DNA of 64,000 bases, taken from NCBI GenBank assembly GCA_973895155.1, contig OZ316892.1, forward strand, positions 448,917 through 512,916. Direction: 5' to 3'. Each line of letters opens with the position of its first letter. Position 1 is the first letter of the stretch. Position numbers and translations under genes: made by a program. The DNA is from Marsupella aquatica (Eukaryota; Plantae; Marchantiophyta). Below are positions 4,441-27,993 of the stretch, piece by piece. The notes below the pieces were generated by a model. The model was given only the letters and a program-made list of their open reading frames with translations. It had not been told where the DNA came from and did not search any database.

Positions 4441-4447
4441 TATAAAA
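4441..4447 (+). promoter_or_regulatory. Candidate TATA box in family A LTR (also 14539-14545)
   Basis: TATAAAA ~360 bp into the LTR and ~100 bp upstream of the likely ATG of the LTR ORF; present in both LTRs. Confidence 0.5.
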
Positions 4448-4548
4448 AGGGAGCCGACCCTTTGTAGTGCACCAGTCCATCAGTCCACGCGCCAGTTTCG
4501 ACCCCAGCTCTCTCGTTCGCTCTTAGTCGCCACTACTATCTCCTCTGA

Positions 4549-7203
4549 ATGTCGCACACGATCCTCTCCAGTTCGGCCATTCGATTCTGGACATAGTTCC
4601 TATCTGGAAGACACTTGGCCGACTCATTGAAACACACCAACCTGCGCCGATACGAAATCGAACGCGAGTACGAGAGAGCCATCCACCTAGCAGGACGACA
4701 CCATTACATCCTTAACTTTGACTACCCGTCTTAGAGCGAGCCTTACCGACCAGTAGAGGTATCTGGGTACTTCTTCAACGGAGACAAATATATCGGTTTC
4801 TAGGAAGCATTGCTTCGGCTTTCGGATGAGGTCTTCAATATCCCAGGTACGATCGACTTGCAATGACATCACTTCGACCACATCCCTGCTCAGGTTCGGG
4901 CTATCATCAACAGCGAGTCCAACACTACCCGTTCGACAAGGTTGTCTGCACTTGCTTCGGAGAACTTCTACCAGCACCTGCAGAGCTTCATGGGAACTAG
5001 ACCCGCAACCGCCGGCGCCGACCCAGTCGACCCCATACCCGTACCCGCACCAACGCAGACTCAGACTCAGGCTCAGGCTCAGCTTCAGTCTCAGTCTCAG
5101 TCTCAGCCTAGCCAGCCCCCACCGCCGATCGCCCCGCCAGCAGTACAAGTACGCTCCATCATCAATGCTGTGGACCTTAGCGACGACGATGAGGCTACCC
5201 CATCCTTGCTTAGGCGGCCCAGAGGAGCAAACACTTAGAGGGCCGACACTACATCGTCCCCTCCCCATGCTCGGACCCAAGGAGCGGCTCCAGCAGACAA
5301 CACGGTGACCGTGGTCGCCCCGGGCCCAATACTAACAGCGGTAGCACTACCTATGCCCGATGGAGAGGATGGGGAGGTGTCACCCTCCCCGAGCCAGTCA
5401 CGGGGGAAGAAGAGGAAGGAACCCACCACTGCATCCGGGTTACCATTGGCCACGGTAGCCGTGGCCAAGGTGACAATGCACCGCATGGGGGAAAACGTGC
5501 ATAAGAACATCCTCCATCCCAAGCATGCGGTGTACCTGAAGACTCAGGGATTCGAGCACCTCGCCTCTCTCCCCTGGAACACTTGCAGGTACTACGGGGA
5601 GGACATGACAGAATTCGTCAAGAATTATGATGACGCACGTCAGCATACTCGGCTGCGGGGAAGGAATATGTCCCTCACGGAAGAACGGCTCAAGATGATC
5701 TTTGGATTATCCAAAGGTGACCATTGAGTCGAATCACGGGCTCCCGGGGGCAAGGGAGCCAAGTACCAATCCTCGAGTTTTCCCTCAGAGGGAGCAGTGG
5801 ACAACGGGTTCGTGATGAGGACCTGCCTCATCCCCGAGATAGCTGAGAGACTGGAGTTCCAAAGGTACGTCCTCCACATGATGGAACCCCGGGGGGAGAT
5901 CTCCGCCGCCCAGGTTATCCAGGTCGAGAACCATCAACCTAGGAAGTGGGCGTCGTACTTCGCTAAGAAATTCCATGAAGAGATGGAGCGGCAAAGGAAG
6001 ACGCTGTACATTGGCGGGAAGGCGTATTTCGCTAGCCACATCGAGATTATTCTTGAGTGGTACGCTCGGTTTGATCGACGAACCCTTCCCCGTGTCAACG
6101 TTACAAAGCTGGTCCCAGCTAGGTGGGTTTTTCCGGCCTTGGAGAGACGGCCCCAACCCGAGGCCCGAAGTCCAGCGGACACGCAAGCTTCACCCACCCC
6201 ACCTCCACAAGTAGTTGTAGTCGTAACCGAGGAGGTACCGGATGGGTCGGTTATCGCAACCGTAGATGCAATCCAACAGGCCGGGCTAAGTACAGAAGTC
6301 GGTACAACGGAGGTCTTACTAGAGCCCGGGTCTTCCAAAGACCCACCGGTGGCTATTCCGGAGAACTGGACATTGCTGCAGGAGGACACTCCAGCCCCTT
6401 CCAACATTACGTCCCCAGGGCTGGATGTCACTGCCCCGGCCCCCGCGCGTGTTGATGTCTGCCCATGCCCAACTCCGGACAGGCACAACCTGAACCACCC
6501 GGAACTCTTCGTACTGGGTACATTTCTGAACGGGCTTCTGGGAGATTTCTCTCATCAAATTTCCCGGGATACCGGGGAGTTCATGGCCCGGAAGGTAGCC
6601 TGTTTCTTCAATCAGGAGTTAGTTGCCGCAGTAAAGGTAGGTCGGGCCCAGTTAGAGGCCCTTTAGAGGATAGAGCGGTACCGGGTGGAGTCCGTATACT
6701 TAAAGAACGAAGTTGTGGCTCAAGAGGCTGAGCTTCTACAACTATGACCCAAGATTGCAGCCGCCGATGAGTTGTTAGCAAAGGCGCACGCCCTTACCGC
6801 CCTAGCCGAGCAGGCCAAAGCTGGGAACGAGGCCGAGATTGCGCGACTTCGGAACCAGATTGACAGTTTGAAGAATCAAACTGTCATCTGGCAGAAAGAC
6901 CTGGAGGAGGCCGAAGAACGGGCCCAGCGGGACACTGCGGAGATAGCCACGCTAGAGGCCGAAGTGGCACGACTCCAAACCGAGCCTGAGAAGCAGGTCC
7001 AGCTGGCGGGCAAGCTGACGAGCGACGCCCAGCAGCTGGAGGAGGCATGCCAGGAGGCAGCGGAGGAGACAGACGCGGCAAAGCAAGAGAACGAATCTCT
7101 GCTGGACCAGGTCCAACTCCTCAAGGCGGACAACGACAAACTTCGTAAGCAGTGGGATGGCCGCTCCCCCTCGGGCGGCTCTGGCAAGCGTGCCAGGCAT
7201 TAG
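4549..7203 (+). pseudogene. Family A LTR-encoded protein (~880 codons; PMD/Athila-ORF-like domain + coiled coil), 5' LTR copy
   Basis: Fragments 4942-5238, 5305-5727, 5797-6666, 6772-7203 join into one protein when compared with the 3' LTR copy; start inferred at ATG TCG CAC (4549). Confidence 0.8.
5057..5113 (+). repeat. CAGnnT hexamer run encoding QTQTQAQAQLQSQSQSQ (also ~15157-15213)
   Basis: cagactcagactcaggctcaggctcagcttcagtctcagtctcagtctcag within the LTR ORF frame. Confidence 0.8.
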
Positions 7204-8114
7204 CGGCGGAGTAGGAATAGAATAGGGTTAGGAATAGCTAAGTTAGGCTACTGGGACAGGCACCTGCCATAGTTATAGCAGCACTGCCATGCTGTCCAGC
7301 CTGTGTAGATTACGATCTTCTAATAAGACACAGCCGTTTTTCAGCCTGACAGTCAGATTAGTTAGGACCTAAGTCAGCAAATCTTCGGGCGGGAGGACAC
7401 TCTGTTCCTCGGCCCTTAGTATTTAGTGCACCCCTCGGTAGAGGTAGGGGGGGTTTTTAGTCTCAAAGTTGGACATCCGTGGTATGTGCGGGGAGTCCCA
7501 ACCTCTGGGAGTGAAAGAGTACCAAGGGGAGGGGGTAGGACTAAGCTCATTGGGCGAGTGCGGAGCCGGGCTCCGTTGTAGTATACTCCCTCGACCTTGA
7601 ACCTGTTCATTCCGAAGCTTTCGGGTCAACCAAGTGTAGGCGCATGTCCCCTATGTAGTAAAATCCTTTCCCATTATTTCCTTCGTGTAAATCAAGATTG
7701 TATGCTTGTGCGCGTGTATGTGTGTGTAAATCTCGTGTATAGGTGACAACGCCGGGCCGAACGCACTACCCGAGTCGTGCACGGGATGTAGCTTGCGGGT
7801 ATGTGGTTGCGAGCATGGGTTGAGGACCTGTATCATAGAATCCAGATCGAAGGCGGACAACACAAAGGCTTAGAAGTCCTTAAGCTGGTGTCGATCCTGT
7901 TATCGACTAAGGTACGTTCCAGCGGCGGAACACAAACCATACCTAGGAGATGTCCGTATCTAACAGTAGGCGCACTTAGCGCTAGTTTACGTGAATTAGG
8001 TGCATTACGTTCTTCCCTCCCTGCCCGAACCCTCATATTTATGAAGGAGGTGCCCGTTTAAAGCTGAAGCCCGAGTTAAGGCCAAGGCTGATGACGTGAC
8101 ATAGCCTTTGTTTT

Positions 8115-8133
8115 TGGCGCTAGATGGAGGGGG
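8115..8133 (+). other. Primer binding site of element A, tRNA-Asn-like
   Basis: TGGCGCTAGATGGAGGGGG just after the 5' LTR; resembles the complement of the plant tRNA-Asn(GUU) 3' end (recalled as TGGCGCTAGAAGGAGGG); identical to the family-B PBS. Confidence 0.8.
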
Positions 8134-8225
8134 CACTCTACATATCGTAGAGGGGAGACATGTGCGTATTCGCCTGGGCAGAATACACCAGGCCCTAGTA
8201 CTAACCATCGCATTTACACGAGTAA

Positions 8226-11024
8226 ATGCCCGTCACTCGTTCTCAAGCAGCTTACTTGAGGAGATTGACCAGCGAACAAGAAGGTGTGACCACAACAAGC
8301 TCCGATTCTTCAAGCTCGGAGGACTCGCAATCGCCCCGACGAATGAACATACCACCGGGACCTTCGGGGTCCGGTTCGACCGGTCCTACTGTGGTTCGTG
8401 TGCCACCACCGCCACCACCTATGGCAGCCGCCCCACCGATGGCCTGCGCTGCCCAAGCTCCTCCACAAATATCACAACGATCGCGGTTTCATTATTGACC
8501 TTTCAAAGGGCATCATGGGGATGATCCGGATGAATGGTTGGATGAGTTTGAAGCCACTGCTAAGGCTAACGGGGAAGACGCCATTAAGTTAATCGTCCTC
8601 CCAGGAGTGATGCAGGGAGAAGCTCGTCCATGGTATAACTCGCTGCCACCCGGGACTACCTGGGCACAATTCCAAGCTGCGTTGTTGCAAGAATTTCGTG
8701 CTATTGGATCCGAGGAGCGCTCTCTATTAAAGATCGGCCAGCTTCACGTGGGAAAAAAGGAGTCCCTGCGAAAGTTCATTCAGAAGTTTCAAAAAATTGT
8801 TGCCAAAATATGGCCCAGGCCTGGTGACGCACTCCAGCTTACATGGTTCCTCCATGGTTTGCCCACGAATATGCAATTCTGGGTGCGCCAGAATAATCCA
8901 ATTTCAATGCAAGCAGCCATAGCGTGCTCCGAAACCTACCGGGAGTCCACCTATAACTCCCGGCAAAGCCAACGGGCACGCCGCAAGAAGGGAAAGTACG
9001 AGACCTTCAGTGACAGTGACTCCGAATCAGACGACGAGAAGAAGAAGAAACGCAAGAAGAAGAAGAAACATCGTTCGACCTTGTCCAGTTCGGAGACTGA
9101 ATCTAGTTTGGATTCAACTTTGAACAGTGGGTCCTCCACCTCCAGCTCATCAGGAAGTGATTCGGAGAGTGAGAGTCGGAGCAAGAAGAAGAAAAGGCGG
9201 GTTAAGAAGGAGGGGAAAATCAAATCTCGTACTCGTAGAACGATACCCGATCCAAAGGCTGCCGAAGCAGACAAGCTTAACAAAATCACGGATCGCCTCA
9301 AAGCACTGTCAGTACATCTCGCGGAAAAGCCGGTGGAGAAGAAGAAGCCATCTGAGATTCAAGCCCATGAATGGTGTTCAAAGTGCTTCCAATACGGGCA
9401 TGTCGTGCAAGAATGCCCAAGATGGAAGAACCGAGTTCACCAGGTGGACTTAGATGATGTCGACAACCCGGGACCTGAAGCAGAGTCCACGAAGTATTTC
9501 TTTGAAGACCCTCCTGATTTGGTGTATCAGATTTCAATGGTGGGTCCGCGTAACTTAGCAGGTAGAACTGCATACCCCTACCCAAACAATGGCCGAGGCT
9601 TCCAAGTTATCAGTAACCCTAGCATTCCTCCTAAACCAGGGATTTGGCGATCCCCGGTTTGTTACAACTGTGAGAAGCCAGGCCATTTTGTGAGGGAATG
9701 CACAGAACCAAGACGCCAGGGGGATGGCCGTGGCACGCCACTTTGTCAAGTCTACAAAACGGAAGCTCATTCCACGGCCAACTGTCCATTGGTAATGGCC
9801 GCTCGAACAAATGCAGCAAGACCAGCCCAGGGCGGACCGGCCACGAGTGATGCGGTCGTCCAAATGATTGCGGTGGAATGGCAAGATGACAACACCAAGT
9901 GGGTGAATCTGGTGGACGTGGCAGAACACCCTAATCCATCTGACGAGGCTGAGTGCTATCGTGTGTCAACAAGAGCCGAACGGAAGGAAGAGAAGCAGGA
10001 GGAGAAACGTAGGAAAAAGCAAGATACTACTCCGGTGCAGCCAGCGATAGATATACCCCCGGAGAAGGACGATGACTACCGACGGGACGACCCAAAGCTA
10101 TTTTTCCCCCGCATCGAAGAATTGGTAAAGAAACAGCTGGAGGCCTACGAAGCTCGGGAGTACCAGAAGGCAATCGATAAGGACATCAAAGCAGCCGAGA
10201 CAACCCGGCGACAGGAGCAAGAAAAGCAAGATAAGCAAGAGGAAGCCAAGCAACAGCCAAAGGAAGAAAAGAAGGAGGACTATGATATTAAGGAGGACGT
10301 AAAGAGTTGCCCGGTTACAGCAACGGTAGGACAACTGCTGCAAAACAATCCACAGTACAGACGGCAACTGAGGGAGTTGCTTACGGGTCGACGACTACCC
10401 CGAGTTGGGACCGCGGATTGCAACATGATATGCGAGGACCTGGGAGCGCCGGACATCTCGATTGAAATTAATAATTGTACCATCAAGATGGTTCTCGTAG
10501 ACGGAGGAGCGGGAGTCAACATCATGACTGAAGAAATGTTAGTCAAGTTAGGATACCTCACGTATCAACCCACAGCCCGAGCTATCAGATTAGCAAACGG
10601 GGCAAGGGTACTTCCATTGGGCACACTTACTCGGGTACTCACTCTGGTAGGAGGGGTGGAGTTCTATCTCAACTTCCTAGTCATGAGGCCGGTTTGGCCC
10701 TCCTCTTATCCGGTCCTCCTAGGCAGGCCATGGCTGTACGGTGGCCGTGTGGTCACGGATTGGGGAAAGAAGGAGCTACGGTTCGGGACACCCACAGTAC
10801 GGGTATCATGGGCAATGGACGATTATCAGGGCGAAACCCCACAGGGACCCGAGGAATATGATTTGGAGACCTCAGAGGAAGAGGAACTCAACATGATTGA
10901 ACTCATCTTGTCCCTGTCCGAGGAAGATGTCTTCGGAGTTGAGGCAACCCGCGAAACACATCTCCTGAATTACCCGAAGGCTGCTATTGAGCCCACCCCA
11001 AGCACCCTCTACTGCCCGGGATGA
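8226..11024 (+). pseudogene. gag: Family A gag-protease (one premature TGA at 8496)
   Basis: MPVTRSQ start; capsid-like DDPDEWLDEFE..GEARPWY; knuckles CSKCFQYGHVVQEC, CYNCEKPGHFVREC and degenerate CQVYKTEAHSTANC; protease LVDGGAG..LLGRPWL. Confidence 0.9.
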
Positions 11025-11040
11025 GGAAACGCAAAAATGA

Positions 11041-14000
11041 CTCATCGATACGGAGGACCCGGCTCTAGCTAAGCAGGGAGCCGATGCTGCTTCTACCAAT
11101 GCAGAGCCTCATGACCGTGAACCAGCCAAACAACTGGCCGAGGCTGAAAACCCGAGACCAAGACATAAGAAACGAGTCTCCTGGGATCCGTCCATCCCGC
11201 AATTGGAGGAAGTAACTCCAATCCCGAGACCAATCCCGGTTCCACCCATGTACGGAGGAGTTTGGTTAGCTGAACTTGATGCGAGCCTGGACCCGAGCTT
11301 GCGGAACCAGGTTGAAGTCATCAGGAAGGAGCACTACCGGAAGTACACCATTGGGATGGATAAATCGTTTAACCTGGGCCACGCTCTGACGGGGGAGGCG
11401 GAAAAATCTATCCAAGCTCTGCTCAAGGAATATGAAGATGTGTTTGCATGGAGCCATCATGATTTAACAGGAGTCTCCCCCAATTTAGGAGAACACACGA
11501 TCGATTTGAATCTGGGGGCCCATGCAGTACGGCAGCGACAACGTCGCATGAACCCAAGGTACTCCATCTTAGTGAAGGAGGAAATTGATCGTCTCCTCGC
11601 CGCAGATATCATCTACCCGATAATGGCCAACGATTGGGTCTCTCCCATCGTCATTGTACCAAAAAAGGGAGGAACGGACGGAAAACCTAAGATCCGGATT
11701 TGTCAGGACTATCGTAGGCTGAACGACGCGACCCGAAAAGACCATTACCCATTACCATTCATGGATATGGTTCTAGATATGGTAGCCCAAAATGAAATTT
11801 ATACATTCCTTGACGGGTATTCGGGTTATAACCAAATCTGGATTCGCCTCTCGGATTAGCTCAAAACAACGTTCACTATGGAATGGGGGATTTTCGCATT
11901 TCGAAGAATGCCGTTCGGACTGTGTAATGCTCCGGCCATGTTTCAGCGACTCATGATGAATATCTTCCATGATTTCCTACGGGAATTTCTGGAGATATTT
12001 ATCGACAACTTTGCCATCTTTGGAACTGTCGCCATGCACCCCGAACACCTAAGACGTACATTGCAACGATGCCGAGAGGTTAACCTCAAACTACATCCCG
12101 CTAAATGCTTTTTCGGGGTAGAGGAGGGAGTGTTACTCGGGCATTGTGTGTCCAAACGGGGTATCGAGGTGGACCAAGAGAAGGTCGTGGCCTAGATGGC
12201 GGTGGTGTTTCCCGTAGATCAAAAAGCGGTATGATCCTTCTTGGGTTGTGTAGGGTATTACCGTCGGTTCATTAAAGACTTTGCTAAAATAGCGTTGCCC
12301 TTGACTGAAATGATGAAAAAGGATGCGATGATCGAGGAGACACCCAGGAGACGGATTGCTTTCGAAGAACTCCGTAAAAGACTCACCACCGCACCTATCA
12401 TGGTCACTCCGGACTGGAATAAGGAGTTCCACGTGTATGTCGATGTGTCAGGGTTCTGTATTGGATCCGTGCTCAGTCAGCTTGATGAGGACGGACGCGA
12501 CCACCCCATCTACTTCGCTAGCCGTCAATTATTCATAGCCAAAAAGAATTATTCCCCCACTGATCGAGAAGCTATGGGAATAATCTACTCGTGTAAAAAG
12601 TTCCGACACTATCTGCTAGGCTACAAGGTCATATTCCACACGGATCATGATAGCCTGAAGTACATGGTCAACAAAGCGGACGTGACGGGATGGATAGCCC
12701 AGTGGGTGCTACTTCTCCAGGAATTTAACTACAAAGTTCGCGTTCGGCCCGAAAAGGCACACCTCAATGCCGACTTCTTTTCAAGGCTGGACGGCGTACC
12801 AGTCGATCAGCCAATTGATGATATTTTTCCGGATGAGGAGTTGTTCCACGTAGGGGCGGGGACGCCAACGTGGTACGGCTCAATAATCACCTTCCTCTTA
12901 ACAGGCCGCATCCCTGACGACATCAATCAGGAAGCCGCCGCTGTGTTTCTACGGAAAGCCGGGCCTTTTCTTCATGGTACAGGGTCACCTACATAAGGAA
13001 GGAATTAATGGGAAGTTACGACGCTACTTAGAGTATAAGGAGACGCTTATCGTGATGCGGGCCTTGCATGAAGAAGAAGCTGGAGGCCATTTCACGGCTA
13101 TCACGATAGCCCAAAAGATTCTGGACTCAGGGTATTGGTGGCCTACGTTGCATCGGGATGTACAACGCTTCATCAAGGGCTGTGACCTGTGTCAGCGGGC
13201 TGGGGCCCCGAGATGAGCCCATCATCACCCTCTCACGTCCGTGCTTCCATTAGCACCATTCGAAAAGTGGGGTATTGATTATATCGGACCATTTACTCCC
13301 GTTACCCGAAGACAAAGATGCAGGTACATCCTGCTAGCTATTGATTACTCCACCAAGTGGGTCGAAGCACAGGCTATGGTGAAGGACGACGCCGCAACCA
13401 GCGCCAGGTTCTTATATGAACAAATTTTCACCCGGTTTGGACCACCCTTAGAGTTGGTAAGCGACCGTGGAACACACTTTCTCAATGACACTATAGCCCA
13501 GCTTACAGAGCGTTACCTAGTCAAGCACCGCAAGACTACCCCGTATCATCCTAAAGCCAACGGGATGACAGAGAGAGCAAATGGTATCATTGGGAAGATC
13601 CTCAACAAAACGGTAGCTGCGCACAAAACGGATTGGGATGATAAGTTGTACGCAACAGTGTACTCGTATAATCTAGCTTACAAAACTACTACGAGTCACA
13701 GCCCGTACTTTCTCGTGTTTGGCCAACATTCGTTGGTGCCCGTTGAGTTTGAAGTACACACTCCACGGGTCAGCATTCGGGATCGCTTACCTAAATCTGA
13801 AATTTGGTCAGACCGAGCTTATCAGATTGAAGCCTTAGAAGAGGCATGGCTACTAGCAGCTCGACACGCCGTAATGAAGCAGGCAACTTCCAAGAAACAG
13901 CACGACAAAGGACTACGGAAGGTTGACGTCGTGACAGGCGATCTAGTCCTTCTGTACGACAGTAGGTACATGCAGTTTCCAGGGAATCTTCATACCCGTT

Positions 14001-14212
14001 GGTTAGGGCCCTTCCTAGTCAATCAGATCTACCCTAACGGATCTTTGGAGCTTGCGACGTACGCCGGCGATTTACTCCCCACGCGAGTCAATTACGATCG
14101 CGTAAAGAAGTACCACCATCAAGACAACAACGCCGAGAGTGATGTTCGCGAGGATGCTTCACAATTAAGCAGGGAGCTATGTGACACCGCCGGTACGGCG
14201 AGTAATGAGTAA
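11041..14212 (+). pseudogene. pol: Family A pol (RT-RNase H-integrase), multiple stops and a frameshift
   Basis: RICQDYRRLN, LDGYSGYNQI, MPFGLCNAP, FIDN (catalytic DD mutated), DVSGFCIG/FHTDH, GHF..CDLC, WGIDYIG..SDRG..TERAN, WLGPF; stops at 11857, 12193, 12232, 13214; frameshift near 12970. Confidence 0.92.
14167..14179 (+). other. Polypurine tract region of element A
   Basis: AAGCAGGGAGCTA immediately before the TG of the 3' LTR. Confidence 0.7.
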
Positions 14213-17200
14213 TTCGGTCTAAACCGTGCTTAGCACGCGCGTTAGGGGTATCTTAGGTCGCTATGATTAGCATAACGACAGTATTTTGGTAGCCATTATG
14301 AGTAGGAAATCATTAGTCAATAAGGAGAATTCATGTTTGGGCTGGCGGCGCGTCGCCATTTGCACGCCCGGGTTACGACCGTGGAGGGGCCCCTCCCTCG
14401 GGTCCGTATAACGAACTTTGGGAGGCGTCCACTGACACGCGGTGACTCAGACCGGCGAAGTGGCCGACACACTACAAGTGTGAACGGTTCAGCCTATAGG
14501 CAACGAGGAGATGTCGGGGGATCGACAAGCCCTCAAGGTATAAAAAGGGAGCCGACCCTTTGTAGTGCACCAGTCCATCAGTCCATGCGCCAGTTTCGAC
14601 CCCAGCTCTGTTGTTCGCTCTTAGTCGCCACTACTATCTCCTTTGAATGTCGCACACGATCCTCTCCAGTTCGGCCATTCGATTTTGGACGTAGTTCCTA
14701 TCTACCGGAAGACACTTGGCCGACTCATTGAAACACGCCAACCCGCGCCGATACAAAATCAAACGCGAGTACGAGAGAGCCATCCGCCTAGCAGGACGAC
14801 ACCATTACATCCTTAACTTTGACTACCCGTCTGAGAGCGAGCTTTACCGACCAGTAGAGGTATCTGGGTACTTCTTCAACGAAGACAAATATATCGGTTT
14901 CTGGGAAGCATTGCTTCGGCTTCCGGACGAGATCTTCAATATCCCAGGTACGATTGACTTGCAACGACATCACTTCGACCACATCCCTGCTCAGGTTCGG
15001 GCTATCATCAACAACAAGTCCAGCACTACCCATTCGACAAGGTCGTTTGCACTTGCTTCGGAGAACTTCTACCAGCACCTGCAGAGCTTCATGGGAACTA
15101 GACCCGCAACCGCCGGCGCCGACCCAGTCGACCCCATACCCGTACCCGCACCAACGCAGACTCAGACTCAGGCTCAGGCTCAGCTTCAGTCTCAGTCTCA
15201 GTCTCAGTCTAGCCAACCCCCACCGCCGATCGCCCCGCCAGTAGTACAAGTACGCTCTGTCATCAATGCTGTGGACCTTAGTAATGACCACGAGGCTACC
15301 CCACCCTTGCTCAGGCGGCCCAGAGGAGCAAACACTCAGGGGGCCGACACTACATCGTCCCCTCCCCATGCTCGGACCCAAGGAGCGGCTCCAGCAGACA
15401 ACACCGTGACCGTGGCGGCCCCGAGCCCAATACTAACGGCGGTAGCACTACGTATGCCCGATGGAGAGGATGGGGAGGTGTCCCCTCCCCGAGCCAGTCA
15501 CGGGGGAAGAAGAGGAAGGAACCCACCACTGCATCCGGGTTACCATTGGCCACGGTAGCCATGGCCAAGGTGACAATGCACCGCATGGGGGAAAACGTGC
15601 ATAAGAACATCCTCCATCCCAAGCATGCGGTGTACCTGAAGACTCAGGGATTTGAGCACCTCGCCTCTCTCCCTTGGAACACTTGCAGGTACTACGGGGA
15701 GGACATGATAGAATTCGTCAAGAATTATGATGACGCACGTCAGCATACTCGGCTGCGGGGAAGGAATATGTCCCTCACGGAAGAACGGCTCAAGATGATC
15801 TTTGGATTACCCAAAGGTGACCATCGAGTTGAATCACGGGCTCCCGGGGGCAAGGGAGCCAAGTACCAATCCTCGAGTTTTCCCTCAGAGGGAGCAGTGG
15901 ACAACGGGTTTGTGATGAGGACCTGCCTCATCCCCGAGATAGCTGAGCGACTGGAGTTCCAAAGGTACGTCCTCCACATGATGGAACCCCGGGGGGAGAT
16001 CTCCGCCGCCCAGGTTATCCAGGTCGAGAACTATCGACCTAGGAAGTGGGCGTCGTACTTTGCTAAGAAATTCCATGAAGAGATGGAGCGGCGAAGGAAG
16101 ACGCTGTACATTGGCGGGAAGGCGTATTTCGCTAGCCACATCGAGATTATTCTTGAGTGGTATGCTCGGTTTGATCGACGAACCCTTCCCCGTGTCAACG
16201 TTACAAAGCTGGTCCCAGCTAGGTGGGTTTTTCCGGCCTTGGAGAGACGGCCCCAACCCGAGGCTCAAAGTCCAGCGGACACGCAAGCTTCACCCACCCC
16301 ACCTCCACAAGTAGCTGTAGTCGTAACCGAGGAGGTATCGGTTATTGCAACCGTAGATGCGATCCAACAGGCTCGGCTAAGTACAAAAGTCGGCACAACG
16401 GAGGTCTTACTAGAGCCCGGGTCTTCCAAAGACCCACCGGTGGCTATTCCGGAGAACCGGACATTGCTGCAGGAGGACACTCTAGCCCCTTCCAACATTA
16501 CGTCCCCAGGGCTGGATGTCATTGCCCCGGCCCCCGCGCATGTTGACGTCTGCCCGTGCCCAACTCCGGACAGGCACAACCTGGACCACCCGGAACTCTT
16601 CGTACCAGGTACATTTCTGAACGGGCTTCTGGGAGATTTCTCTCATCAAATTTCCCGGGATACCGGGGAGTTCATGGCCCGGAAGGTAGCTTGTTTCTTC
16701 AATTAGGAGTTAGTTGCCGCAGTAAAGGCAGGTCGGGCCCAGTCAGAGGCCCTTTAGAGGATAGAGCGGTACTGGGTGGAGTCCGTATACTTAAAGAACG
16801 AAGTTGCAGTTCAAGAGGCTGAGCTTCTACAACTACGACCCAAGGTTGCAGCCGCCAAAGAGTTGTTAGCAGAGGAGCACGCCCTTACCGCCCTAGCCGA
16901 GCAGGCCAAAGCTGGGAACGAGGCCGAGATTGCGCGACTTCGGAACCAGATTGACAGTTTGAAGAATCAAACTGTCATCTGGCAGAAAGACCTGGAGGAG
17001 GCCAAAGAACGGGCCCAGCGGGACACTGCGGAGATAGCCATGCTACAGGCCAAAGTGGCGCGACTCCAAACCGAGGCCGAGAAGCAGGACCAGCTGGCGG
17101 GCAAGCTGACGAGCGATGCCCAGCAGCTGGAGGAGGCATGCCAGGAGGCAGCGGAGGAGACAGACGCGGCAAAGTAAGAGAACAAATCTCTGGTGGACCA

Positions 17201-17620
17201 GGTCCAGCTCCTCAAGGCGGACAACGATAGACTTCGTAAGCAGCGGGATGGCCGCTCCCACTCGGGCCGCTCTGGCAAGCGTGCCAGGCATTAGCGGTGG
17301 AGTAGGAATAGAATAGGGTTAGGAATAGCTAAGCAGGCTACTGGGACAGGCACCTGCCGTAGTTACAGCAGCACTGCCATGCTGTCCAGCCTGCGTAGAT
17401 TAGGATCTTCTAATAAGACACAGCCGTTTTTCAGCCTGACAGTCAGATTAGTTTGGACCTAAGTCCGCAAATCTTCGGGCGGGAGGACACTCCGTTCCTT
17501 GGCCCTTAGTATTTAGTGCACCCCTCGGTAGAGGCAGGGGGGTTTTTAGTCTCAGAGTTGGACATCCGTGGTATGTGCGGGGAGTCCCGACCTTTGGGAG
17601 CCAAGGCTGATGACGTGACA
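14180..17620 (+). repeat. Family A 3' LTR (3441 bp; lacks ~570 bp corresponding to ~7512-8081 of the 5' LTR)
   Basis: TGTGACACC...GATGACGTGACA followed by TSD AGGGC; 7 differences from the 5' LTR in the first 119 bp, 6 of them transitions. Confidence 0.95.
14647..17294 (+). pseudogene. Family A LTR-encoded protein, 3' LTR copy
   Basis: Fragments 14716-15558, 15546-16706, 16776-17177; GFEHLASLPW..MIEFVKNYD..TRLRGRNMSLTEERLKMIFGLP then heptad-rich C-terminus. Confidence 0.8.
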
Positions 17621-17625
17621 AGGGC

Positions 17626-19880
17626 ACCAGAGGAGGTTCCGAAATAGAGGCCGGCAACAGAGAAACCAAACCAGCCCAACAGTCCTACAATCGAGCAGGT
17701 GTTTAGGCCGAGGACGGAGGACTTGCCGATGCAACAACCAGGCATGCAGAATCTGCTGAAATTGCTAGAGAAGGAAAAGAGAATGGCAACGGCAATGGCA
17801 CAGGTAGAGGACACTCCTTCAAAGGTCGGCCTAAGCCGACTCATGAAGGAAAACCCCTTAAGTTTACCGGAGCCAAGGAAAGAGGGAGGCCAGAACACAA
17901 GCCGGGGGTTCAAATGTATGTAGGAGCCTCGAGTCCTGTAGCCGAGGGAAGGCAGCCTAAGGCTCATGTTCAGGGGAAACAGATGGAGAAGACAGCCTGG
18001 AAGCCAGAGGAGGAACTAGGACCTACTAGCTATGATCGGCAGGATGCCATGTTCACGGCAAGACCAGGGGAGCAGCGGGGGGAGCCGGTAGTCCAAGCAG
18101 TGGAGGAGGCGGTGGAGGACTACGGCAATGATGACTCCGGCTACGGGTCGGACCATCATGTCCCAGGAATAAGGACCTGTGGCCGTTTCATCCCCATGCT
18201 TCCAAGAGTAGTTTGAGGGGACCCCACCCAGCAGAACAGCCCTGAGTCCCCCCCACCAAATGTCGCTCCCCCGAGCTTTGACGACATAAAACAGACGACA
18301 CAAGAGTTTCAGGAGCGACTCAGGGAGGAAGAGAGGGCAGCCCTGGCTAGGGAGAAAGATTTACCAGGGGGAGAATGGCCAGAGGACATCAGGCGGCTTG
18401 CAGAAAAACAAAGCAGCCCTCCAGCCACGATAGAAGAAATCCGCAAGGCGGCTTGGGAACAAAGGCCACGGTGGTTGATGCCGATGACTTCTACTCACTC
18501 CACCTATGCTAAAGAAAGAGCCATGGAGTACGGGGAGATGTGTGGGCAACTTGCGCTCGGCATCTTTGGGGAGGAGTTGGAGCAGGGACCTTTTTTCCAG
18601 AGGGAGATGTTGGAAAAACACCGATTAGAAGAAGTGGTGGCTTTGGAGAGAAGAAAGAAAGACGAGGTCATCCGTCGACTTAGGGCAAGGGAAGCCAAGG
18701 TGGAAGACCTGAAGGCGGCCAAGAAAGACCAAGATGAGTTGCGGATTAAGCAGCATGAGCTAAACATCTTGCAGGGGCAATTGGATATCGCTCAGTCTGA
18801 TAATCAGATTATCAAGGATAAACTGACTCGGACCCAGGGGAGTTGGCCATTGCGGTCAAGGAAAGGGAGAAGTGGAAGCGGGAGCTGAGGGACGTAGAGG
18901 AGGCCCACATAGCAGCCAACAATCAGGCCATGGCAGAGACTCAGAGAAGGGAAAGGGCATTGAAGGGGGAACTCGAGGATATCCGTGGAGCCCTTGAGCA
19001 GAAGGAGGCCGAGTTAGGGAAATCCTATCAAAGGATTATTGTGCTGCAGCAGGAGCTTGCATCCCTAACGGCCAGGTTCAAGGCCGACCTGAGTGAGAAA
19101 GACGACCAGCTCGATCAGACTTATGCCAAGATGAATAAAATGGAGTTTGAGGTTGTAGCGGAGCTCAACAAGGAGCTAAGAGCAACCCAGGATGAGAGGG
19201 CTACCTTAAAGAAGGAATTGGAGGAAGCCCAAAAGGAGCTGGAGGAGGCGCGCAAGGACCTGGACAAAGTGCAGGAGGAGTTGGAGGAAAGCACGAGGAA
19301 GATGGAGAACTTACAACGGCGAGCCGACAACCAAACGGAGCAGCTAAAGAAACAAGTCGCAGTATTTAAGTGTTTGGCTTCATCAAGCCCAATTGGGGCA
19401 ACCAAGTTGCCAGGAGTAGTACTGGCCAAAGGACAAGCCGCGACACTCGCACCGGTGCTGGAGATAAGTGGCAAGGGGAAGGGACCAACTGCCGAAACAG
19501 GGAAGAAGAAGCGGAAACCTTCTGGGTCAAGGAGTAATGCGGCTTCTCAAGCCGTCATGACAAAGGAGGTACAACCGGCGCCAACCTCAGGCAGGATCAC
19601 GGTAGATCCACCCCTAGAAGGTGGGGATGGTAAGGCCGAGGCCGGAACAATCAGTGATGAAGCTGGGGTATCGGATCCTCCACTAGAGCATGTCGGGGAG
19701 GCCGTAGCCGTATTAGAGGCCATGGCCGATGCTGAGACCAAAGCCAAGGGTGGACCCAGTCAGGCCGATGGAGAGTTGACTCGGTCTGGGGCAGGTAATC
19801 TGTCAGAGGACGGACCTACGGTAGTGGCTACGGAAGAAGCGTTGGGGGCGTCCATTGAGGATCAGCCACCACTACCATGA
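17626..19880 (+). pseudogene. LTR-encoded protein of B', C-terminal part (coiled coil and acidic/Ala-rich tail)
   Basis: ORF fragments 17699-17923, 17914-18216, 18475-18888, 18843-19880 continue the family-B LTR protein, with stops and frameshifts. Confidence 0.85.
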
Positions 19881-22800
19881 CGGTGGTGGAGGGCCGCTCC
19901 TTTTAAGGAGGGCGAACGTGGAGGGAGGAGGCGTGAGTGGGCAGGGTGGGCTTAGATCTCCAAGTTTAGAATTAGGATCAGGACCAGGAGGCGGCCCTAA
20001 CACTTAGATTAGTGGGATTGCGGATCCACTGGTAAGAGCAACACTTGTGCTCCTGCCTCGCTGTACATAGGTAGATTACAGTTAGGTATATTAGTCTTAT
20101 GCTGCAAAGAATTAGGCGGATCCACTGCCAGGATAAGTACCTGGGATGCGGGGAGTTCAGGGCCTTCTTCTTTAGCAAGTTTTTAGTGCACCAACAGGGC
20201 TGGGATCAGGTAGTAAAAGAAGCTCTCGTTAGTTATACTGTGACCCTTGTGTATGTTCACGTTTCCTCATGCCTAAGAGATGAATAGAGTTGGCCTCACG
20301 GCTTAGTTCGCAGATCTTGTGTATGAGAAGTATTGTTTGTATGGCAAGTGCATGGTATAACTCAATCAGAAGGAGTCATTTTTGCTATTTGTGTGTTGCA
20401 TTAACTTGTTTGAAGATTGCCCACATCAACCAAGAGAAGGGAGTAAGCAAGGTAGTAAGAGTTGGATGTGTCGAGCTGAGAGAGGTCTTAGCGGCTTACC
20501 CAAGCCAGTTGGGGATCATTTTGGCGGCGGAATCCAAACATACCAAGAGAAAAGACCAAGAGAGGAGACCAAGGGAAGACATAGAAGAGGCCGGCTACGT
20601 ATCTCATGACCCGATGAAGGATCTGTCCAGTATATGTGTGTAAAATGTTAGTAGAAGCAGGTTAGCAGCGTCACATGCCACTAAGCCACGAAACCGGCCT
20701 CGCCAAGGGCAAAACCTGCGGGAATCGGCTTGTGCAAGGGGGTTTCTTGGGTTTAGGGAGCCATGGGACGCACCACAATAGCCAAGCCGCGTTCAGTTTC
20801 CCATGGGAGCTTGCGTTGGGGAGGCAAGGCGGAGTAGGCGGAGGTTGAGTTCCAACTACACTTGGCCCCTAGACTCTCATTTGAATGTAACCTAGAGTTG
20901 GTTGCTAGAGTGGGGGCCATTCTGGTCCCAGCGTTTTAGGACAAACTTAGGGACAAGCTAGCTAATTGAGCCATGAGCATGTCCTAGAGGCAGGGCGGTT
21001 AGCCAGTGACAAATAGGAAATGAGGAAGCTGGGGTGGCATCCGTAGACCCAGGGTCCTCACTTCTTTTCTTCTGATCCATCACACGCGAATAAGTATAGG
21101 GTTTTTTATTGGGTTTAGTGAAATACTTTTAAATTTTTGTTGAAGAACATTAGGGTTATTTTAATCTAATTTTGAGGATTATAAGAATCATGGGGTTTTT
21201 TAAATCAAATATGGGAATATTCTTGGAATATTCCATTAAGTTAGGGGTAAAACAATTCCTAAAAAAACTTTATTGACTTAACTTTTAGGGTGTTTATTCC
21301 CCCAAAACTTCGAGCGTGATATGGGACACCCCTTGGATTGAGGCCCCCGAGTCCGTAGAGGGGTTGATCTAGACAAACACTGGGTATCGGCTCTGGCTTT
21401 GGCTTATGGCAAGGCCATGCGGGCCTGAGAGGTTCTATTCATTGACCTACTTACAAGGTCTGTTGAGCTTGATTTGAGATACTAGTCTTGGAGTTCTTGG
21501 ATCCAGATGGGTTACTTAAATTATACCAAAGTGTTTGGTTGCTTGTGCAGACAATGAGGACCATTGAGCAACGGTTGGGTTAAGGTATAGGCAGCACAAC
21601 CAAAAACTTGAAGTCTAGAATAATCAATAGGTCTCTTATACCACAACTCAAATGGAGTTTGCATCAACTTACTAGTGGTAGACCTTGCCACCTAGCGCCC
21701 TCACCAATCCCAGCACCCACGCCTAAGGGCCCTGATGCCCAAACACATCTGTAAGTAGTGGGTAATTCCAAAAGCATGAAGAAACTGGAAATTTTCAATT
21801 TTTTTACGGTGTTTAGACTGCAATTATTGCTAACTGTAACTAAAACAACATTCGAAGTTACTAAGTTACTATGTATCCTGAAAGGCAATTGAGATGCCTA
21901 CCCTACTCTCGAGGATCCCCACGCCAGGCTGAACTGATGGAAGTTACACAGAATCGAACTGTTACAACAGTGGAGCTACTCGAACCAGAAGACATCCAAC
22001 AGCAAGCTTGAAGAAGTCTTTAAGTGTTTTTAGTTAAGTTTAGGAGTAATGCATCTTATCTGATTTTTATAAATGTGTTCTAAGGCTTTCGAAGCTCTCA
22101 TACTTCCTCAGTATATAGTCTGTACTTAGGAAAACCTGCTGGAAAAATCTTAGAGTTTTCCAACTTATAGTTAGGAAGTTAAAAATAGTTGAATTCCCTA
22201 AGTCTTTAACAATATCGCATTACGAGTTACTAGTTTCCGATTACGAGTTCCGATAGACAGTCGATTACGAGTTAATAGTTTACTAGTTACGAGTTCATAC
22301 TTAGCCATTTTTCCGGCTTTTCACTTACTGAATCGCCATTTTAACTTTTTGAGGGGTATGAAGAGGCATGTCTCTTCGACCCTGTAACCTCTCACTCTGT
22401 AGATTTTGGCTATAAGATAGCTTTGCCACTAGTGTAGTTTATGGTTAAGTTATGCATTTTTGCCTTTTCCTTGTGTTAAACTAGTTGATCATGAATCTAT
22501 GAGTTCGAGATCAGGTTTAACATTTGGAGAGACTTACCTCCTTCTTGTGTTTTTACCTATGATTATAAACACAGGAAGTAAAATTCCTTTTGTGCAAATC
22601 TTTTGAGTTGTAATGATAGATTCCTTGTTGGTGACTCATTGCAATCTCTTGAGTTCTTGAAGTTAACTCATTGATTTTAAGTCTTATTGAAATTGATGGA
22701 TTTTCTTTCATGTTGCTTAGTACCATCTAAATGTTGAAGTAGCTACCTTTTAGATCTTATCTGAGTACCACTTAGAAAGAAAGGATAAGACATGTTGACG

Positions 22801-23428
22801 GCATTTTAAAAGGTACTCTAGTAAGCAGTTTAGATCTGAAAAGCAATATGGATTTGTATCCTTAAGTCTTTTCATTTTGACTTATGTCTAAGGAGTAACC
22901 TTGGAAAATTCCAGACTCCCTTAGCATACTTTAAGATATACTTTCCTATGTTTTGTTAATCATTCCCTTTTCATTAATTTATGGTTACATGATGCTGAAT
23001 TGTCATTGAAAACCACTCACCGCTGTGGAGCGATCTTCAAAATACTTTATTAAAGTAATCAATTCTGATTACTATGTGTTAAAGAGAGTTCTTAAACTCT
23101 CATTTGTGTTTTTATGTATCAAATCAACCCCATATTGTTCTTTACGGGAATGAATACCGAGTTTGAAGACCTTTCAATGTGTTTTTGGTTCTTCATAGCA
23201 AACTACAACCTCCACAGAACCCCTCGAGCAAGCAACTTGGTGTCCTCAACACCACCTACTACCCCTCCCATACAAAGTCACACTTGCTCTCTAGCACGAC
23301 CATTGCTCAACGGTCCTTGTGATGCCTAGACAGGAATCACTCGACCGGTTAAGTGGGTAAAGCAGGAAGGCACCATAGGAACACCTTAGTATAGTGACAA
23401 AACAAGGAAAATATAAACAATTAGGGGC

Positions 23429-26400
23429 ATGGAACCCGGGCAGAGGCCGGAGGTAAGGCTGAGGGTGAAAACCCGATTAGGGTTAGGGCGCGTTAAGCGT
23501 CGGCGGCTAGGAAGGATCAACGGGAAGAAGGACCGGCAGAGGAGAGGGGTAAGGAGCGCTTGCAGGAGATGGTGGCTCATTTGCGAGCACGAACTAGGCA
23601 GACGACTACGGGAGGCCAACTACTGTCAGCTGCTTAGGCAAGCACTCGGGGAGAGAGTAGATACCGACGATCGACCTAAGGAGGGTATGAGCAACGTCAA
23701 TCAAGCGGCACATTTCTGGGGATGCCTGTTCGAACGGGCAACTGAGTACATCAAGACTTACGAGGACGAGGAGTCAGAAAGGGCAGCTCGAGAACGGCAG
23801 GAGCTCGCTCGATTGTGGGAGCTGCACAAGACGGCTTTCTTAGGAGGCGAACTCATCAAGGACGAGTTCCTGTGGACGCCTACTTCCAATCAACTCGACG
23901 ATCTTCTGTTTTGCAAAGACAGCGTCGTCGGCATCCGAGAGGCCATCAAGAACTGCAACGACATACACTGGGAATTAAAGGGTAGCACGGAAAGGTGGAC
24001 CCGGGCAACGGTGCTAGGAGAAACCTCCACGGCAGCAGAGATGAAGAGGAAGGGAGCCGTCAACGATGAAGCCACCCTGGCAAAAAGAACGAGGTCGGCG
24101 GCACCAAAGAAGCCAGCCGAGCAGCAGAGCAGGAGGCAGGGAGAAGCCGAAGAGGAGGAGGTCGATCCCATCAAGGCCATTCCAACCAGGGATGACACCT
24201 GGAAGGGCTGGGCGGCAACCCTACCGGTGGAGGTGCAACTACATTTTGCACGGGAGGAGGATGCATGCTTTACGGCCATGCAGACCAAGAAGTACCAAGG
24301 CTTCATGGCCGGATCCGGCTTGGAGGCCTTTGTAAGATTACCATGGCTGAAGCCGGAGGTACCGGAGTCAGACCTATTAGAATTCGTGGGGTCATGGGAA
24401 CCCGAGACCAATTGCACGAGGATATATGGGAAGGATTTCTATCTTACTCCCAAGGTAATTGCCGAAGTGTTTGGCTTGCCGATGGGCAATAAGACCAAAG
24501 TTGATACCAGGAAGACCTTGCCTGACAAGGAGTTCCGGTCGTTCCCCGGGCCATCAACGAAGAATGGCTTCTTCCAGAACACCTGCACCAACCCGCACAT
24601 AGGAGAGATGATCGACTTCTTGCGGGTGACCATGCATTGTAACTTGCCGAGGGCAGAGATCGGCAAGGCACAGGTCTATCTGGCAGAAAGGCCAGACCCA
24701 AGCCGGGACTACAACGGGTACCTCCTCAACCAATTGAAGAAGATCTTAAAGGAGGAGCAGCAGGTAATCGGCATGGGGAGCGTGTCGCGGCTTGGCTATC
24801 ACATGCCGCTGTTGTGCCGGTATGCCAGAGGTCAGACTTTTGCCCCGGTACTTCCCCTGCAGGTAAGGGCACCCGAGGAAGCTCCAACACCGAGGCCGTT
24901 GGCTGAGAAGCCTCCACCACCTGTTAGTCCTACGATCGAGCAGGTGTTTAGGCCCAGGAAGGAAGACTTGCCGATGCAGCAACCAGGCATGCAGAGTCTG
25001 CTGAAACTACTGGAGAAAGAAAAGAAATCGGCATCGGCAACAACAACAACAACGGCAACGGCAACAATGCAGGACACTACTACAGAGGTAGGCCTACACC
25101 GGCTCACAAGAGAAAACCCCTTTGCTGGAGACAAGGAGAGAATCAGGCCGGAATCCAAGCCAGGTGTTCGAATGTACGTGGGAACCTCAAGCTCCGAATC
25201 TGAGGCAGAATTGCCTGAAGCTCCTACCGACGAAGAGGAGAGGGAGAAGCCGGACGTCCAAGAAGTAGAGGAGGCAGTGGAGGACTGCAGCCATGATAAT
25301 TCCGGCTATGGGTCGGACCATCACGTTCCAGGAGTAAGGACCTGTGGCCGGTTTGTCCCCACACTTCCAAGGGTAGTGCGAGGGGACCCCAACCAGCAGA
25401 GTAGCCCTGAGTCTCCCCCACCAGATGTTGCTCCCCCGAGCTTCGACGACATAAAACAGACGGTGCAGGAATTTCAGGAGCGAATCAAGCAGGAGGAAGA
25501 GGCCGCCCTGGCTAAGGAAAAGGATTTACCAGGAGGAGATTGGCCGGAGGACATCAGGCGGCTAGCCGAAAAAGGAAGCAAACCTCTAGCCACGATTGAA
25601 GAGATCCGCAGGACGGCGTGGGAGCAGAGGCCACGATGGGCGATGCCGATCACTTCTACTTACTCCACCTACGCTAAGAATAGAGCCATGGAGTAGGGTG
25701 AGATGTGTGGGGAACTTGCGCTCGGCATCTTTGGAGAGGAGTTGGAGGTAGGACCCTTTTTCCATAGGGAGCAGTTGGAGAAGCACCAATTAGAAGAAGC
25801 GGTGGCTTTAGAGAGAAGCAAGAAGGACGAGGTCATTCGGCGGCTTAGGAGGATGGGAGCCGAGATTGAAGATCTAAGGGCGGCCAAGAAAGCCCAAGAT
25901 GAACTGCGGATTAAACGACATGAGCTGAACATCATGCAGGGGCAGTTGGACGCCGCGCAGGCTGATAATCAGAATATCAAGGATAAACTGGCTCAGACGC
26001 AGGAAGAGTTGGCCGACACGATCAAAGAGAGGGAGAAGTGGAAGCAAGAGCTGAAGAATACAGAGGAGGCCCACATAACAGCCAACAGCCGGGCCATGGC
26101 GGAGACCCAAAGAAAGGAATGGGCGTTGAAAGGGGAGCTCGAGAAAATCCGCGGAGCCCTTGAGCAGAAGGAGGTCGAGTTAGGGAGATCCTATCAAGGG
26201 ATTATGGCGCTGCAGCAGGAGCTTGCGTCCCTGACGGCCAGCTTCAAGGCCGACCTAAGGGAGAAGGACTAGATGCTCGAACAGACTTACGCCAAGATGA
26301 ACCAGATGGAGTCTGTCATCATTGCAGAGCTCGACAAGGAGCTAAGAGCAACCCAGGAGGAGAGGGCTACCTTGAAGAAGGAATTGGAGGAAGCCCACAG

Positions 26401-27058
26401 GGAGCAGGAGGAGGCCAAAAACGAGCTGGAGGGGGCACGTAAGGACCTGGATGAAACCCAAGAGGAGTTGGAGGAAATCACAAGGAAGATGGAGAACCTA
26501 CAGCGGCGGGCCGACAACCAAACAGAGCGGCTGAAGAAACAAGCCGCAGTATTTAAATGCTTAGCTGCAGCAGGTCCATCTCCCGTTGGGACAAACCAGT
26601 TACCAGGGGTGGTAATTGCCGAAGGACAAGCCGCGTCAACTGCACCAGTGCCGGAAGTAAGTGGGAAGGGGAAGGGACCAGCTGCTGAGCCACCAACGAA
26701 GAAGAAGCGGAAACCTCCAGGGTCAAGGAGTAATACGACTTCACAGGCCGTGGTGATCAAGGAGGTAGACCCAGCACCGACCCCAGACAGGGTCACGGCT
26801 AAGGATCCAACTACCCTAGGGGAAGGGGAGGCCGAAGCCGAGGGAGTGGCTGAAGCCGAAGCCGTGGGAGTGGCTGAGGCCGAAGCCGTGGGTATTGCCG
26901 AGGCCGGTGTCGAGGCTGAAGCCGAAGGTGGACCCAGTCAGGCCGATGGAGAGTTGACTCGGTCAAGGGCAGGTAATCTGTCAGTAGGCGGGCCAACGGC
27001 AGTGGCTGAGGAGGAAGTGTTGGGGGCGTCCATTGAGGATCCACCACCGGTGTCGTGA
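23429..27058 (+). pseudogene. LTR-encoded protein, LTR1 copy (in-frame TAG at 25694 and 26270)
   Basis: ORFs 23429-25696, 25703-26272, 26273-27058 are all in one frame. Confidence 0.85.
26828..26927 (+). repeat. 24-bp coding tandem repeat (EAEA[E/V]G[V/I]A x3) in the LTR ORF tail; same in all four LTRs
   Basis: GAGGCCGAAGCCGAGGGAGTGGCT / GAAGCCGAAGCCGTGGGAGTGGCT / GAGGCCGAAGCCGTGGGTATTGCC; not present in this form in B'. Confidence 0.8.
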
Positions 27059-27974: not shown

Positions 27975-27993
27975 TGGCGCTAGATGGAGGGGG
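27975..27993 (+). other. Primer binding site, tRNA-Asn-like (also 38856-38874, 49740-49758, 60621-60639)
   Basis: TGGCGCTAGATGGAGGGGG, 4 nt (TTTT) after each LTR end. Confidence 0.85.

Follow-up and report, generated by a model that had tools for sequence, protein, structure and literature searches.

Why would a retrotransposon keep a whole gene inside its long terminal repeats (LTRs), and what could the product of such a gene do? This question is raised by a 64,000-nucleotide (nt) stretch of the liverwort Marsupella aquatica (GenBank assembly GCA_973895155.1, contig OZ316892.1, positions 448,917 to 512,916 of the forward strand), hereafter the window, in which Ty3/gypsy elements of two families, A and B, are stacked. 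In both families a long open reading frame (ORF) lies inside each LTR of 4.0-4.7 kb, with 884 codons in A and about 1,120 codons in B, i.e., a whole gene of 2.7-3.4 kb is contained in the LTR. This ORF is a gene under purifying selection, and its central domain is, on the evidence of a predicted structure, a branch of the PMD/DUF1985(VANC) fold, divergent and of liverwort type, that lies outside Pfam PMD. We give a probability of roughly 0.5 to the reading that the accessory gene product is a nuclear, oligomeric protein which would bind the element's own DNA and keep the copies of its family transcribed.

The LTR-borne gene and its two shared domains

An earlier note, made from the letters of the window, had claimed that A and B encode the same domain, and BLASTP bears this out, with 52 of 185 residues identical (28%; 48% positive) at an E value of 6e-22. 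The family A peptide was located at 15546-16170, within the frame 15288-16706, and the family B peptide in frames of the B LTRs, where the B1 and B2 peptides are each one residue off the sequence quoted earlier. Both ORFs lie within true LTRs, with TG...CA ends and a primer-binding site (PBS) after the 5′ LTR, confirming that the domain gene is LTR-borne. A profile built from outside homologues only recovered the central domain in seven of seven window copies (144-189 bits) and nothing else at 8 bits or more.

The families had also been described as having no obvious DNA similarity, which holds for the domain of the LTR ORF but not for the elements overall, whose pol genes are 67% identical in DNA and 60-65% identical in protein. 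The codon-aligned DNA identity of the central domains is 38, 50 and 31% at codon positions 1, 2 and 3, which is near background. When one B LTR was compared with the two A LTRs by blastn (word size 7), a single 29-nt match (E 0.008) resulted, located in the non-coding tail and outside the domain.

The two families share one layout, consisting of an N-terminal domain (N-domain), a basic linker, the central domain, a low-complexity or disordered linker, a coiled coil and a tail. The copies in the window are as follows.

4549-7203, + strand, LTR ORF of the A 5′ copy, a single 884-codon frame, interrupted by 8 stops but without net frameshift
4570-4905, + strand, N-domain of the A 5′ copy
5470-6066, + strand, central domain of the A 5′ copy
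14668-15000, + strand, N-domain of the A 3′ copy, about 110 residues, no Pfam family
15570-16166, + strand, central domain of the A 3′ copy, about 195 residues, open in the frame 15288-16706
16755-17294, + strand, coiled-coil region and ORF end of the A 3′ copy, broken by stops
3450-4043, + strand, central domain of the old B LTR, in its left part (2963-4081)
about 23687-27058, + strand, ORF of B LTR 1, with internal stops at 25694 and 26270
23699-24001, + strand, N-domain of B LTR 1
24239-24829, + strand, central domain of B LTR 1
25772-26551, + strand, coiled coil of B LTR 1, by a simple heptad scan
35120-35710, + strand, central domain of B LTR 2
46001-46591, + strand, central domain of B LTR 3, whose ORF has 966 open codons and a single internal stop at 48035
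56885-57475, + strand, central domain of B LTR 4, whose ORF is frameshifted

B LTRs 1-3 thus have one or two internal stops each, and LTR 4 has a frameshift. Around the central domain a naturally open stretch extends over 15555-16214 in A and 24227-24850 in B. The basic patch reported ahead of the domain is clear in A (KKRK) and visible in B, where it was missed by the nuclear localisation signal pattern. A long coiled coil had likewise been reported after the domain; the simple heptad scan gives a signal in both families (16755-17117 in A, 25772-26551 in B), but the two coils cannot be aligned with each other. No transmembrane segment was found in five ORF pieces, in which the highest 19-residue hydropathy is 1.45. 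Micro- and minisatellites code for disordered parts of the ORF at 5056-5106 and 15157-15210 (6-bp repeat, A) and at 26828-26906 (24-bp repeat, B).

The second shared domain, of about 105-110 residues at the N-terminus, was found with a profile from six outside homologues, which scores 28-39 bits in A; the four young B copies score 12-15 bits, or 7-10 bits once the homologue nearest to A is removed from the profile. A six-frame search of the window with this profile gave no further match at 5 bits or more. The N-domain is also present in homologues P0004, P0025, P0027, P0030, P0074 and P0077-P0081 and is conserved across families; P0077, of 787 residues, is naturally intact. Neither the N-domain nor a 1-bp deletion near 15482, which puts the N-domain of the A 3′ copy out of frame with the central domain, was part of the earlier account.

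Predicted fold of the central domain

The earlier note had assigned the domain to a PMD/Athila-ORF family. However, Pfam at E ≤ 1 returned no match of any kind in the A or B domain, and hence none to PF10536, PF03078 or PF20167. A HMMER scan of 1.84 billion representatives with the domain yielded 69 relatives at E ≤ 0.001, and 25 of these remain when the limit is lowered to E ≤ 1e-10; two word-indexed homologue searches, unlike this full scan, gave zero matches. Among the 69 homologues, Pfam at E ≤ 0.1 matched PMD and ATHILA in none, Transposase_32 in five (14-30 bits) and DUF1985 in one (23 bits), all below the curated cut-offs of 34.9 bits (PMD, PF10536), 35.1 bits (DUF1985, PF09331) and 45 bits (Transposase_32, PF20167). 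Strict membership in PMD, Athila ORF1, DUF1985 or Transposase_32 was rejected because these cut-offs are not reached. PF20167 is the nearest Pfam family by sequence, its best homologue being P0068 (30 bits), which was recovered at E 4e-6 by a profile built without it.

The five weak PF20167 matches bear on whether the ORF could encode an env-like or movement protein, since this domain is known from an accessory ORF of Athila (PMC11728184) and the 3′ ORFs of Athila are often so named (PMC7264820). However, the ORF pieces have no transmembrane segment, predicted viral structures give no credible match (best template-modelling (TM) score 0.23), and the published PF20167 ORF is itself predicted to be nuclear (PMC11728184). 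An env-like or movement protein is hardly credible and the least probable of the alternatives weighed in this report.

The check by AlphaFold and Foldseek that the earlier note had called for was carried out on family A. An AlphaFold2 model of the A central domain from 44 sequences reached a pLDDT score (predicted local distance difference test) of 93.7 and a predicted TM score (pTM) of 0.89; a 3-sequence model (pLDDT 34) was not used. Foldseek against 350,542 PDB chains placed the VANC21-DNA complex 9lnj at the top (probability 0.99, TM 0.52, E 0.02), the remaining rows among the matches listed having TM ≤ 0.19. Alignment of the model with VANC21 by VIA-align gave Z 8.4 and an rmsd (root-mean-square deviation) of 4.3 Å over 209 aligned residues, and an independent VIA-align scan of 48,161 chains gave VANC21 at Z 8.2, rmsd 4.2 Å and 207 aligned residues, with the runner-up at Z 2.3. 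The match spans the whole central domain, and the predicted model, which is for family A only, has the fold of the VANC21 globular domain. Queried by sequence, the PDB yielded nothing relevant, and VANC21 was not among the entries listed at E ≤ 10.

The structural match agrees with weaker leads from sequence. Profile-profile comparison with Orobanche proteins, which have weak DUF1985 and PMD matches, gave a probability of 85% and a score of 40.7 over 134 columns; as controls, none of 40 shuffles exceeded 17.8 and the reversed profile did not exceed 14.6. Look-alikes in the Atlas belong to DUF1985 and PMD clusters (0.84-0.88) and serve as leads only. The link to the PMD fold is indirect, in that the A model matches VANC21 and the likeness of VANC and PMD comes from the literature, where the DUF1985 domain of VANC is described as structurally similar to the PMD of MAIL1/MAIN (bioRxiv 10.1101/2024.09.27.615353; PMC13547354). 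Because the Pfam cut-offs are missed and VANC21 is the sole match among solved structures, the domain is read as a branch of the VANC/PMD fold and not as a Pfam member. Of the earlier assignment, a PMD-related fold is supported by way of VANC21, but membership in the Pfam families is not.

Purifying selection and apparent lesions of the window copies

Between the young and old B LTRs, the ratio of nonsynonymous to synonymous divergence (dN/dS) in the central domain is 0.13 (95% interval 0.06-0.21; 201 codons); the stretch upstream of it has 0.23, the coiled coil 0.25 and the tail 0.54. The controls gave 1.10 and 1.56 in the other two frames and 0.87-1.02 in the non-coding LTR tail. Between the two LTRs of A, which measure divergence since insertion, dN/dS is 0.55-0.77. 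The conservation claimed for the gene earlier is supported.

That every window copy is broken at some point would be compatible with the gene being captured or decaying cargo that does nothing for the element. However, dN/dS between the B subfamilies is 0.13-0.31, and the gene has been kept in two families whose pol proteins are 35-40% different. The two LTRs of A are broken mostly at different positions, and in more than 90% of the contig depth in each of four runs the codon of the stop common to the B array reads with another letter, so that the stops look like lesions of these particular copies. The cargo explanation, already largely refuted, is very improbable.

Both families are covered along their full length in two runs with different organism labels. 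In two runs, LTR bins are about 4-5x deeper than internal bins, which hints at many solo LTRs, depth not being equal to copy number. Of the B LTR words, 58-81% are present in runs with four different organism labels (X1-X6), which points to close relatives or to a recent spread. Contigs from the runs contain neither transcript ends nor credible splice joints; none of the 18 runs listed is recorded as RNA, which is no argument for or against expression.

Relatives of the domain

Nine of the 20 relatives looked up carry a species name, comprising five from Calypogeia fissa, three from Riccia sorocarpa and one from Orobanche minor (marginal, E 3e-4), i.e., liverworts account for eight of the nine, which makes a liverwort host likely. 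The outside proteins nearest to the window copies are 38% identical to A and 42% identical to B. In a tree of 35 rows (two Riccia rows together with those domain stretches of the 44-row alignment that have at least 140 residues), A and B fall into separate sub-clades of a wide radiation, the base of which is poorly resolved. Two scans of metagenome contigs found no loci around homologues.

In P0049 and P0050 (Riccia sorocarpa), the domain stands behind a Harbinger-type DDE_Tnp_4 fragment, fused in the gene models; this may be a DNA transposon with the domain, or else the gene models may be at fault. P0037 (Calypogeia fissa) and P0055 have domains 71% identical to each other, form their own clade and show no coiled coil in the heptad scan; they are possibly a domesticated host gene paralleling MAIN/MAIL.

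Place in the LTR, probable cis signals and methylation

In A and B alike, the integrase frame continues past the polypurine tract and enters the LTR (by 33 nt in A and 12 nt in B), and the elements therefore have no 3′ internal region. Each LTR examined has one TATAAA, upstream of the ORF, at LTR position 360 in A and 95 in B. In the 3′ LTR of A it is a candidate promoter:

14539-14544, + strand, TATAAA of the A 3′ LTR, 108 nt ahead of the first ATG of the ORF at 14647

The simplest reading of this arrangement has the U3 region taking up a 3′ accessory ORF together with that ORF's own promoter. Alternatively, the 5′ TATA may be the main promoter, which would place the ORF within an R/U5 of great length.

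Over its last 800 nt, the B LTR diverges between subfamilies by only about 0.09-0.17, compared with a synonymous divergence (dS) of 0.45 in the ORF. The 29-nt match between A and B is located at about 27710-27740 and about 7917-7945, and its score was matched in 0 of 200 shuffles; it is a candidate promoter, termination or binding site. Based on the low divergence and this motif, cis signals are likely in the B LTR tail. As a separate observation, the non-coding B LTR tail at 27185-27970 is about 4x more conserved between the subfamilies than the synonymous sites of the ORF. RNA folding of LTR heads and tails gave a structured region only near the B LTR end (z -3.9, the best of 35 windows), and among 12 tests for repeated motifs one, in the old B tail, reached P 0.013.

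The two A LTRs differ by 143 substitutions, 121 of which are transitions (Kimura two-parameter distance 0.043). Of these transitions, 98 lie in CG or CHG contexts, which make up 829 of the 1,905 cytosines, and this concentration implies that the host methylates these LTRs.

Proposed function

VANC21 binds a nine-base motif and strips methylation from its own transposon family (PMC5735166), and PMD-C proteins act at DNA motifs to oppose Polycomb, as has been proposed for those encoded by transposable elements (bioRxiv 10.1101/2024.09.27.615353). These precedents, together with the methylated LTRs, favour a nuclear DNA-binding factor. The gene would be transcribed from the TATA box near the 5′ end of the LTR, so that any LTR, a solo LTR included, would be a self-contained expression unit. 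The coiled coil would oligomerise the protein, the central domain would recognise a family-specific DNA site, and binding would locally oppose DNA methylation or Polycomb silencing, as in VANC and MAIL1/MAIN. The gene itself may have entered the LTR as a former 3′ accessory ORF taken into U3 via the polypurine tract at the extreme end of the integrase. The anti-silencing role put forward in the earlier note thereby becomes a better-grounded hypothesis than before.

Several observations speak against this proposal. The identity to VANC21 is only 9-11%, the Foldseek E value is 0.02 and Z of about 8 is moderate; a shared fold by itself demonstrates no function. The Orobanche set is biased, one member having come from our own search, and a deeper hidden Markov model gave its proteins only 9-16 bits, which is not significant. 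No VANC-style repeated motif was detected, since no 6- to 9-mer rose above shuffles in the non-coding LTR parts of A and young B. The central domain of B is near neutral (26 K+R, 24 D+E), compared with 37 and 25 in A. Finally, no window copy is free of both stops and frameshifts, and the four young B LTRs all have one stop in common though gag and pol are open in the three complete units.

The missing repeated motif would also suit a VANC/PMD-fold protein that serves replication, either by binding element RNA or cDNA or by tethering the integration complex, with the coiled coil as a scaffold. Purifying selection is compatible with any essential role, coiled-coil pentamers with numerous host contacts have been predicted for VANC and the Athila domain (PMC13547354), and the nesting of A in a B LTR and the tandem array of B are compatible with targeting. 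However, the one solved structure that the domain matches is that of an anti-silencing factor which binds DNA sequence-specifically, the proteins of this fold that have been characterised work on chromatin, and one nested insertion holds little information on targeting. A replication role is for these reasons rather doubtful.

The protein could also bind the LTR and simply activate transcription, or repress it in a self-limiting manner, leaving the silencing marks in place, as the DNA-binding type of fold, the basic patch and the location in the LTR would allow; MAIL1/MAIN were first identified as silencing factors (PMC5418596). Against this, the primary effect of VANC21 has been argued to be removal of silent marks and not activation (PMC5735166), and no activation or repression domain was identified in the ORF. 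We consider such a regulator unlikely, somewhat more so than a replication protein, and the anti-silencing factor is retained as the preferred reading.

Comparison with known systems

The closest likeness is to VANC21 (DUF1985, PF09331; PDB 9lnj and 9lnk; PMC5735166), with which the predicted fold is shared over 207-209 residues. VANC21 is also the product of a transposon-encoded accessory gene and combines a conserved globular domain, variable flanks and a coiled coil in one protein. However, it is encoded by VANDAL Mutator-like DNA transposons and not by Ty3/gypsy LTRs; the identity is as low as stated above, A and B have no DUF1985 match, and they possess an extra N-domain. The targets of VANC21 form tandem repeats (PMC5735166), whereas no such motifs were found here, and VANC is described as dicot-specific (PMC13547354), whereas the named relatives here are mainly from liverworts.

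PMD (PF10536) is likewise found in an accessory ORF of non-chromovirus gypsy elements and is linked to the present domain through the VANC/DUF1985 fold and the weak profile match. PMD-A is encoded by 57% of Ogre elements, with MAIN, MAIL1 and MAIL2 in hosts (PMC5418596, PMC6317226, bioRxiv 10.1101/2024.09.27.615353). In contrast to PMD, no Pfam PMD match was obtained in the window or in the 69 homologues, the domain has about 195 residues against a 347-position model, and it lies in the LTR, not in the internal region of the element; the PMD survey, in the part used, described angiosperm clades only (PMC5418596). Transposase_32/Athila ORF1 resembles the LTR ORF as a same-sense accessory ORF with no transmembrane helix and with weak PF20167 matches in five of the 69 homologues, but these are below the 45-bit cut-off, PF03078 is absent, and the published examples are internal 3′ ORFs outside the LTR.

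Among gypsy lineages, A and B resemble Tat Z1/Z2, with Athila, Phygy and Selgy placements remaining candidates. They share with Tat Z1/Z2 the lack of a second RNase H, a non-Met PBS, a 5-bp target duplication and, judging by the homologues, a liverwort-type host (PMC10508981, PMC13468544), and these lineages, without the additional RNase H, have been reported in Marchantia (PMC10508981, PMC13468544). The consulted parts of both papers (PMC10508981, PMC13468544) do not mention an LTR-borne ORF.

No description of a plant precedent for an ORF within LTRs was found in the open-access literature searched. Among retroviruses, nef of human immunodeficiency virus (HIV) and sag of mouse mammary tumour virus (MMTV) are U3-borne accessory genes in or overlapping the LTR that act against host control. 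They have no sequence or fold relation to the gene described here, which belongs to a plant element lacking env and, in contrast, is contained entirely in its LTR. Such a layout is unusual, in that the gene dose is doubled per element and the gene survives solo-LTR formation.

Accessory ORFs are common in plant gypsy elements, and their functions are mostly unknown (PMC6317226, PMC7264820); PMD, Transposase_28 and Athila ORF1 domains are known in those of Ogre, Retand and Athila (PMC6317226, PMC5418596, PMC11728184, PMC7264820). To these the present locus adds a Pfam-invisible liverwort-type branch, a direct structural match to VANC21, a second, unnamed domain and a location wholly within the LTR. 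The VANC21 match is a concrete structural lead, and the small, well-folded domain makes the accessory-ORF question testable. Whether PMD originated in gypsy elements or in hosts was left "fully open" (PMC5418596), and VANC has been proposed to derive from a capture of MAIN (PMC13547354); the finding bears on both. A selected, diverse VANC-fold family in liverwort-type retroelements would date the association of the fold with transposons back to early land plants. We propose, tentatively and as a possibility well short of even odds, that a lineage of liverwort LTR retrotransposons encodes a VANC-type sequence-specific anti-silencing factor in its LTRs, each solo LTR thereby being a stand-alone gene that could protect the family in trans. 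The VANC/PMD fold would then have arisen long ago in land-plant retrotransposons, with DNA transposons acquiring it later and hosts domesticating it (MAIN/MAIL); it would not go back to a host gene captured in dicots.

The retrotransposon stack and other features of the window

The elements that carry the LTRs discussed above are arranged as follows.

4082-17620, + strand, element A, nested in an older, 5′-truncated family-B LTR
4082-8101, + strand, A 5′ LTR, 4,020 nt, TG...CA, with the target-site duplication 4077-4081 just before it
8115-8130, + strand, A PBS, identical in sequence to the B PBS
8499-11024, + strand, A gag-protease, upstream of the broken pol
11041-14212, + strand, A pol, broken, its integrase frame extending 33 nt into the 3′ LTR
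14180-17620, + strand, A 3′ LTR, with a 570-nt deletion in its tail and the target-site duplication 17621-17625 after it
2963-4081, + strand, left part of the older family-B LTR, 5′-truncated and interrupted by A
17621-20777, + strand, right part of that older B LTR, with 82% identity to young B and no PBS downstream
23318-27970, + strand, B LTR 1, 4,653 nt
27971-34206, + strand, B internal region, with the PBS at 27975 followed by gag-protease and pol
28037-31033, + strand, B gag-protease, open, overlapping pol in another frame (30940-31033)
30940-34206, + strand, B pol, open, with reverse transcriptase, RNase H and integrase, its frame reaching 12 nt into the next LTR
34195-38851, + strand, B LTR 2, carrying the LTR ORF
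45076-49735, + strand, B LTR 3, carrying the LTR ORF
55960-60616, + strand, B LTR 4, carrying the frameshifted LTR ORF

The assignment to Ty3/gypsy follows from the TG...CA LTR ends, the PBS, the target duplication (5 bp in A) and the order gag, protease, reverse transcriptase, RNase H and integrase. B pol has one RNase H, with the integrase zinc finger directly after it, and thus no second RNase H. The primer-binding site of A and B is one that we take to be of the Tat type, for tRNA-Arg.

Positions 23318-64000 form a head-to-tail B array with shared LTRs and a period of 10,881-10,884 bp. Its four LTRs, of 4.65 kb, are 0.3-0.5% apart (13-25 substitutions between copies), and its three complete internal regions show 2-12 differences per 6,224 bases, with gag and pol open in all three. 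An assembly artefact was considered for this array and is unlikely, given the 13-25 LTR differences, mostly transitions.

An Rfam scan of positions 1-35000 gave one sub-threshold chance match only, and no tRNA genes were found in the window. The element stack is flanked by two tandem repeats, namely a 578-bp repeat of about three copies, 92-94% alike, at 1-1716, and an AT-rich 83-bp repeat of five copies at 2149-2570.

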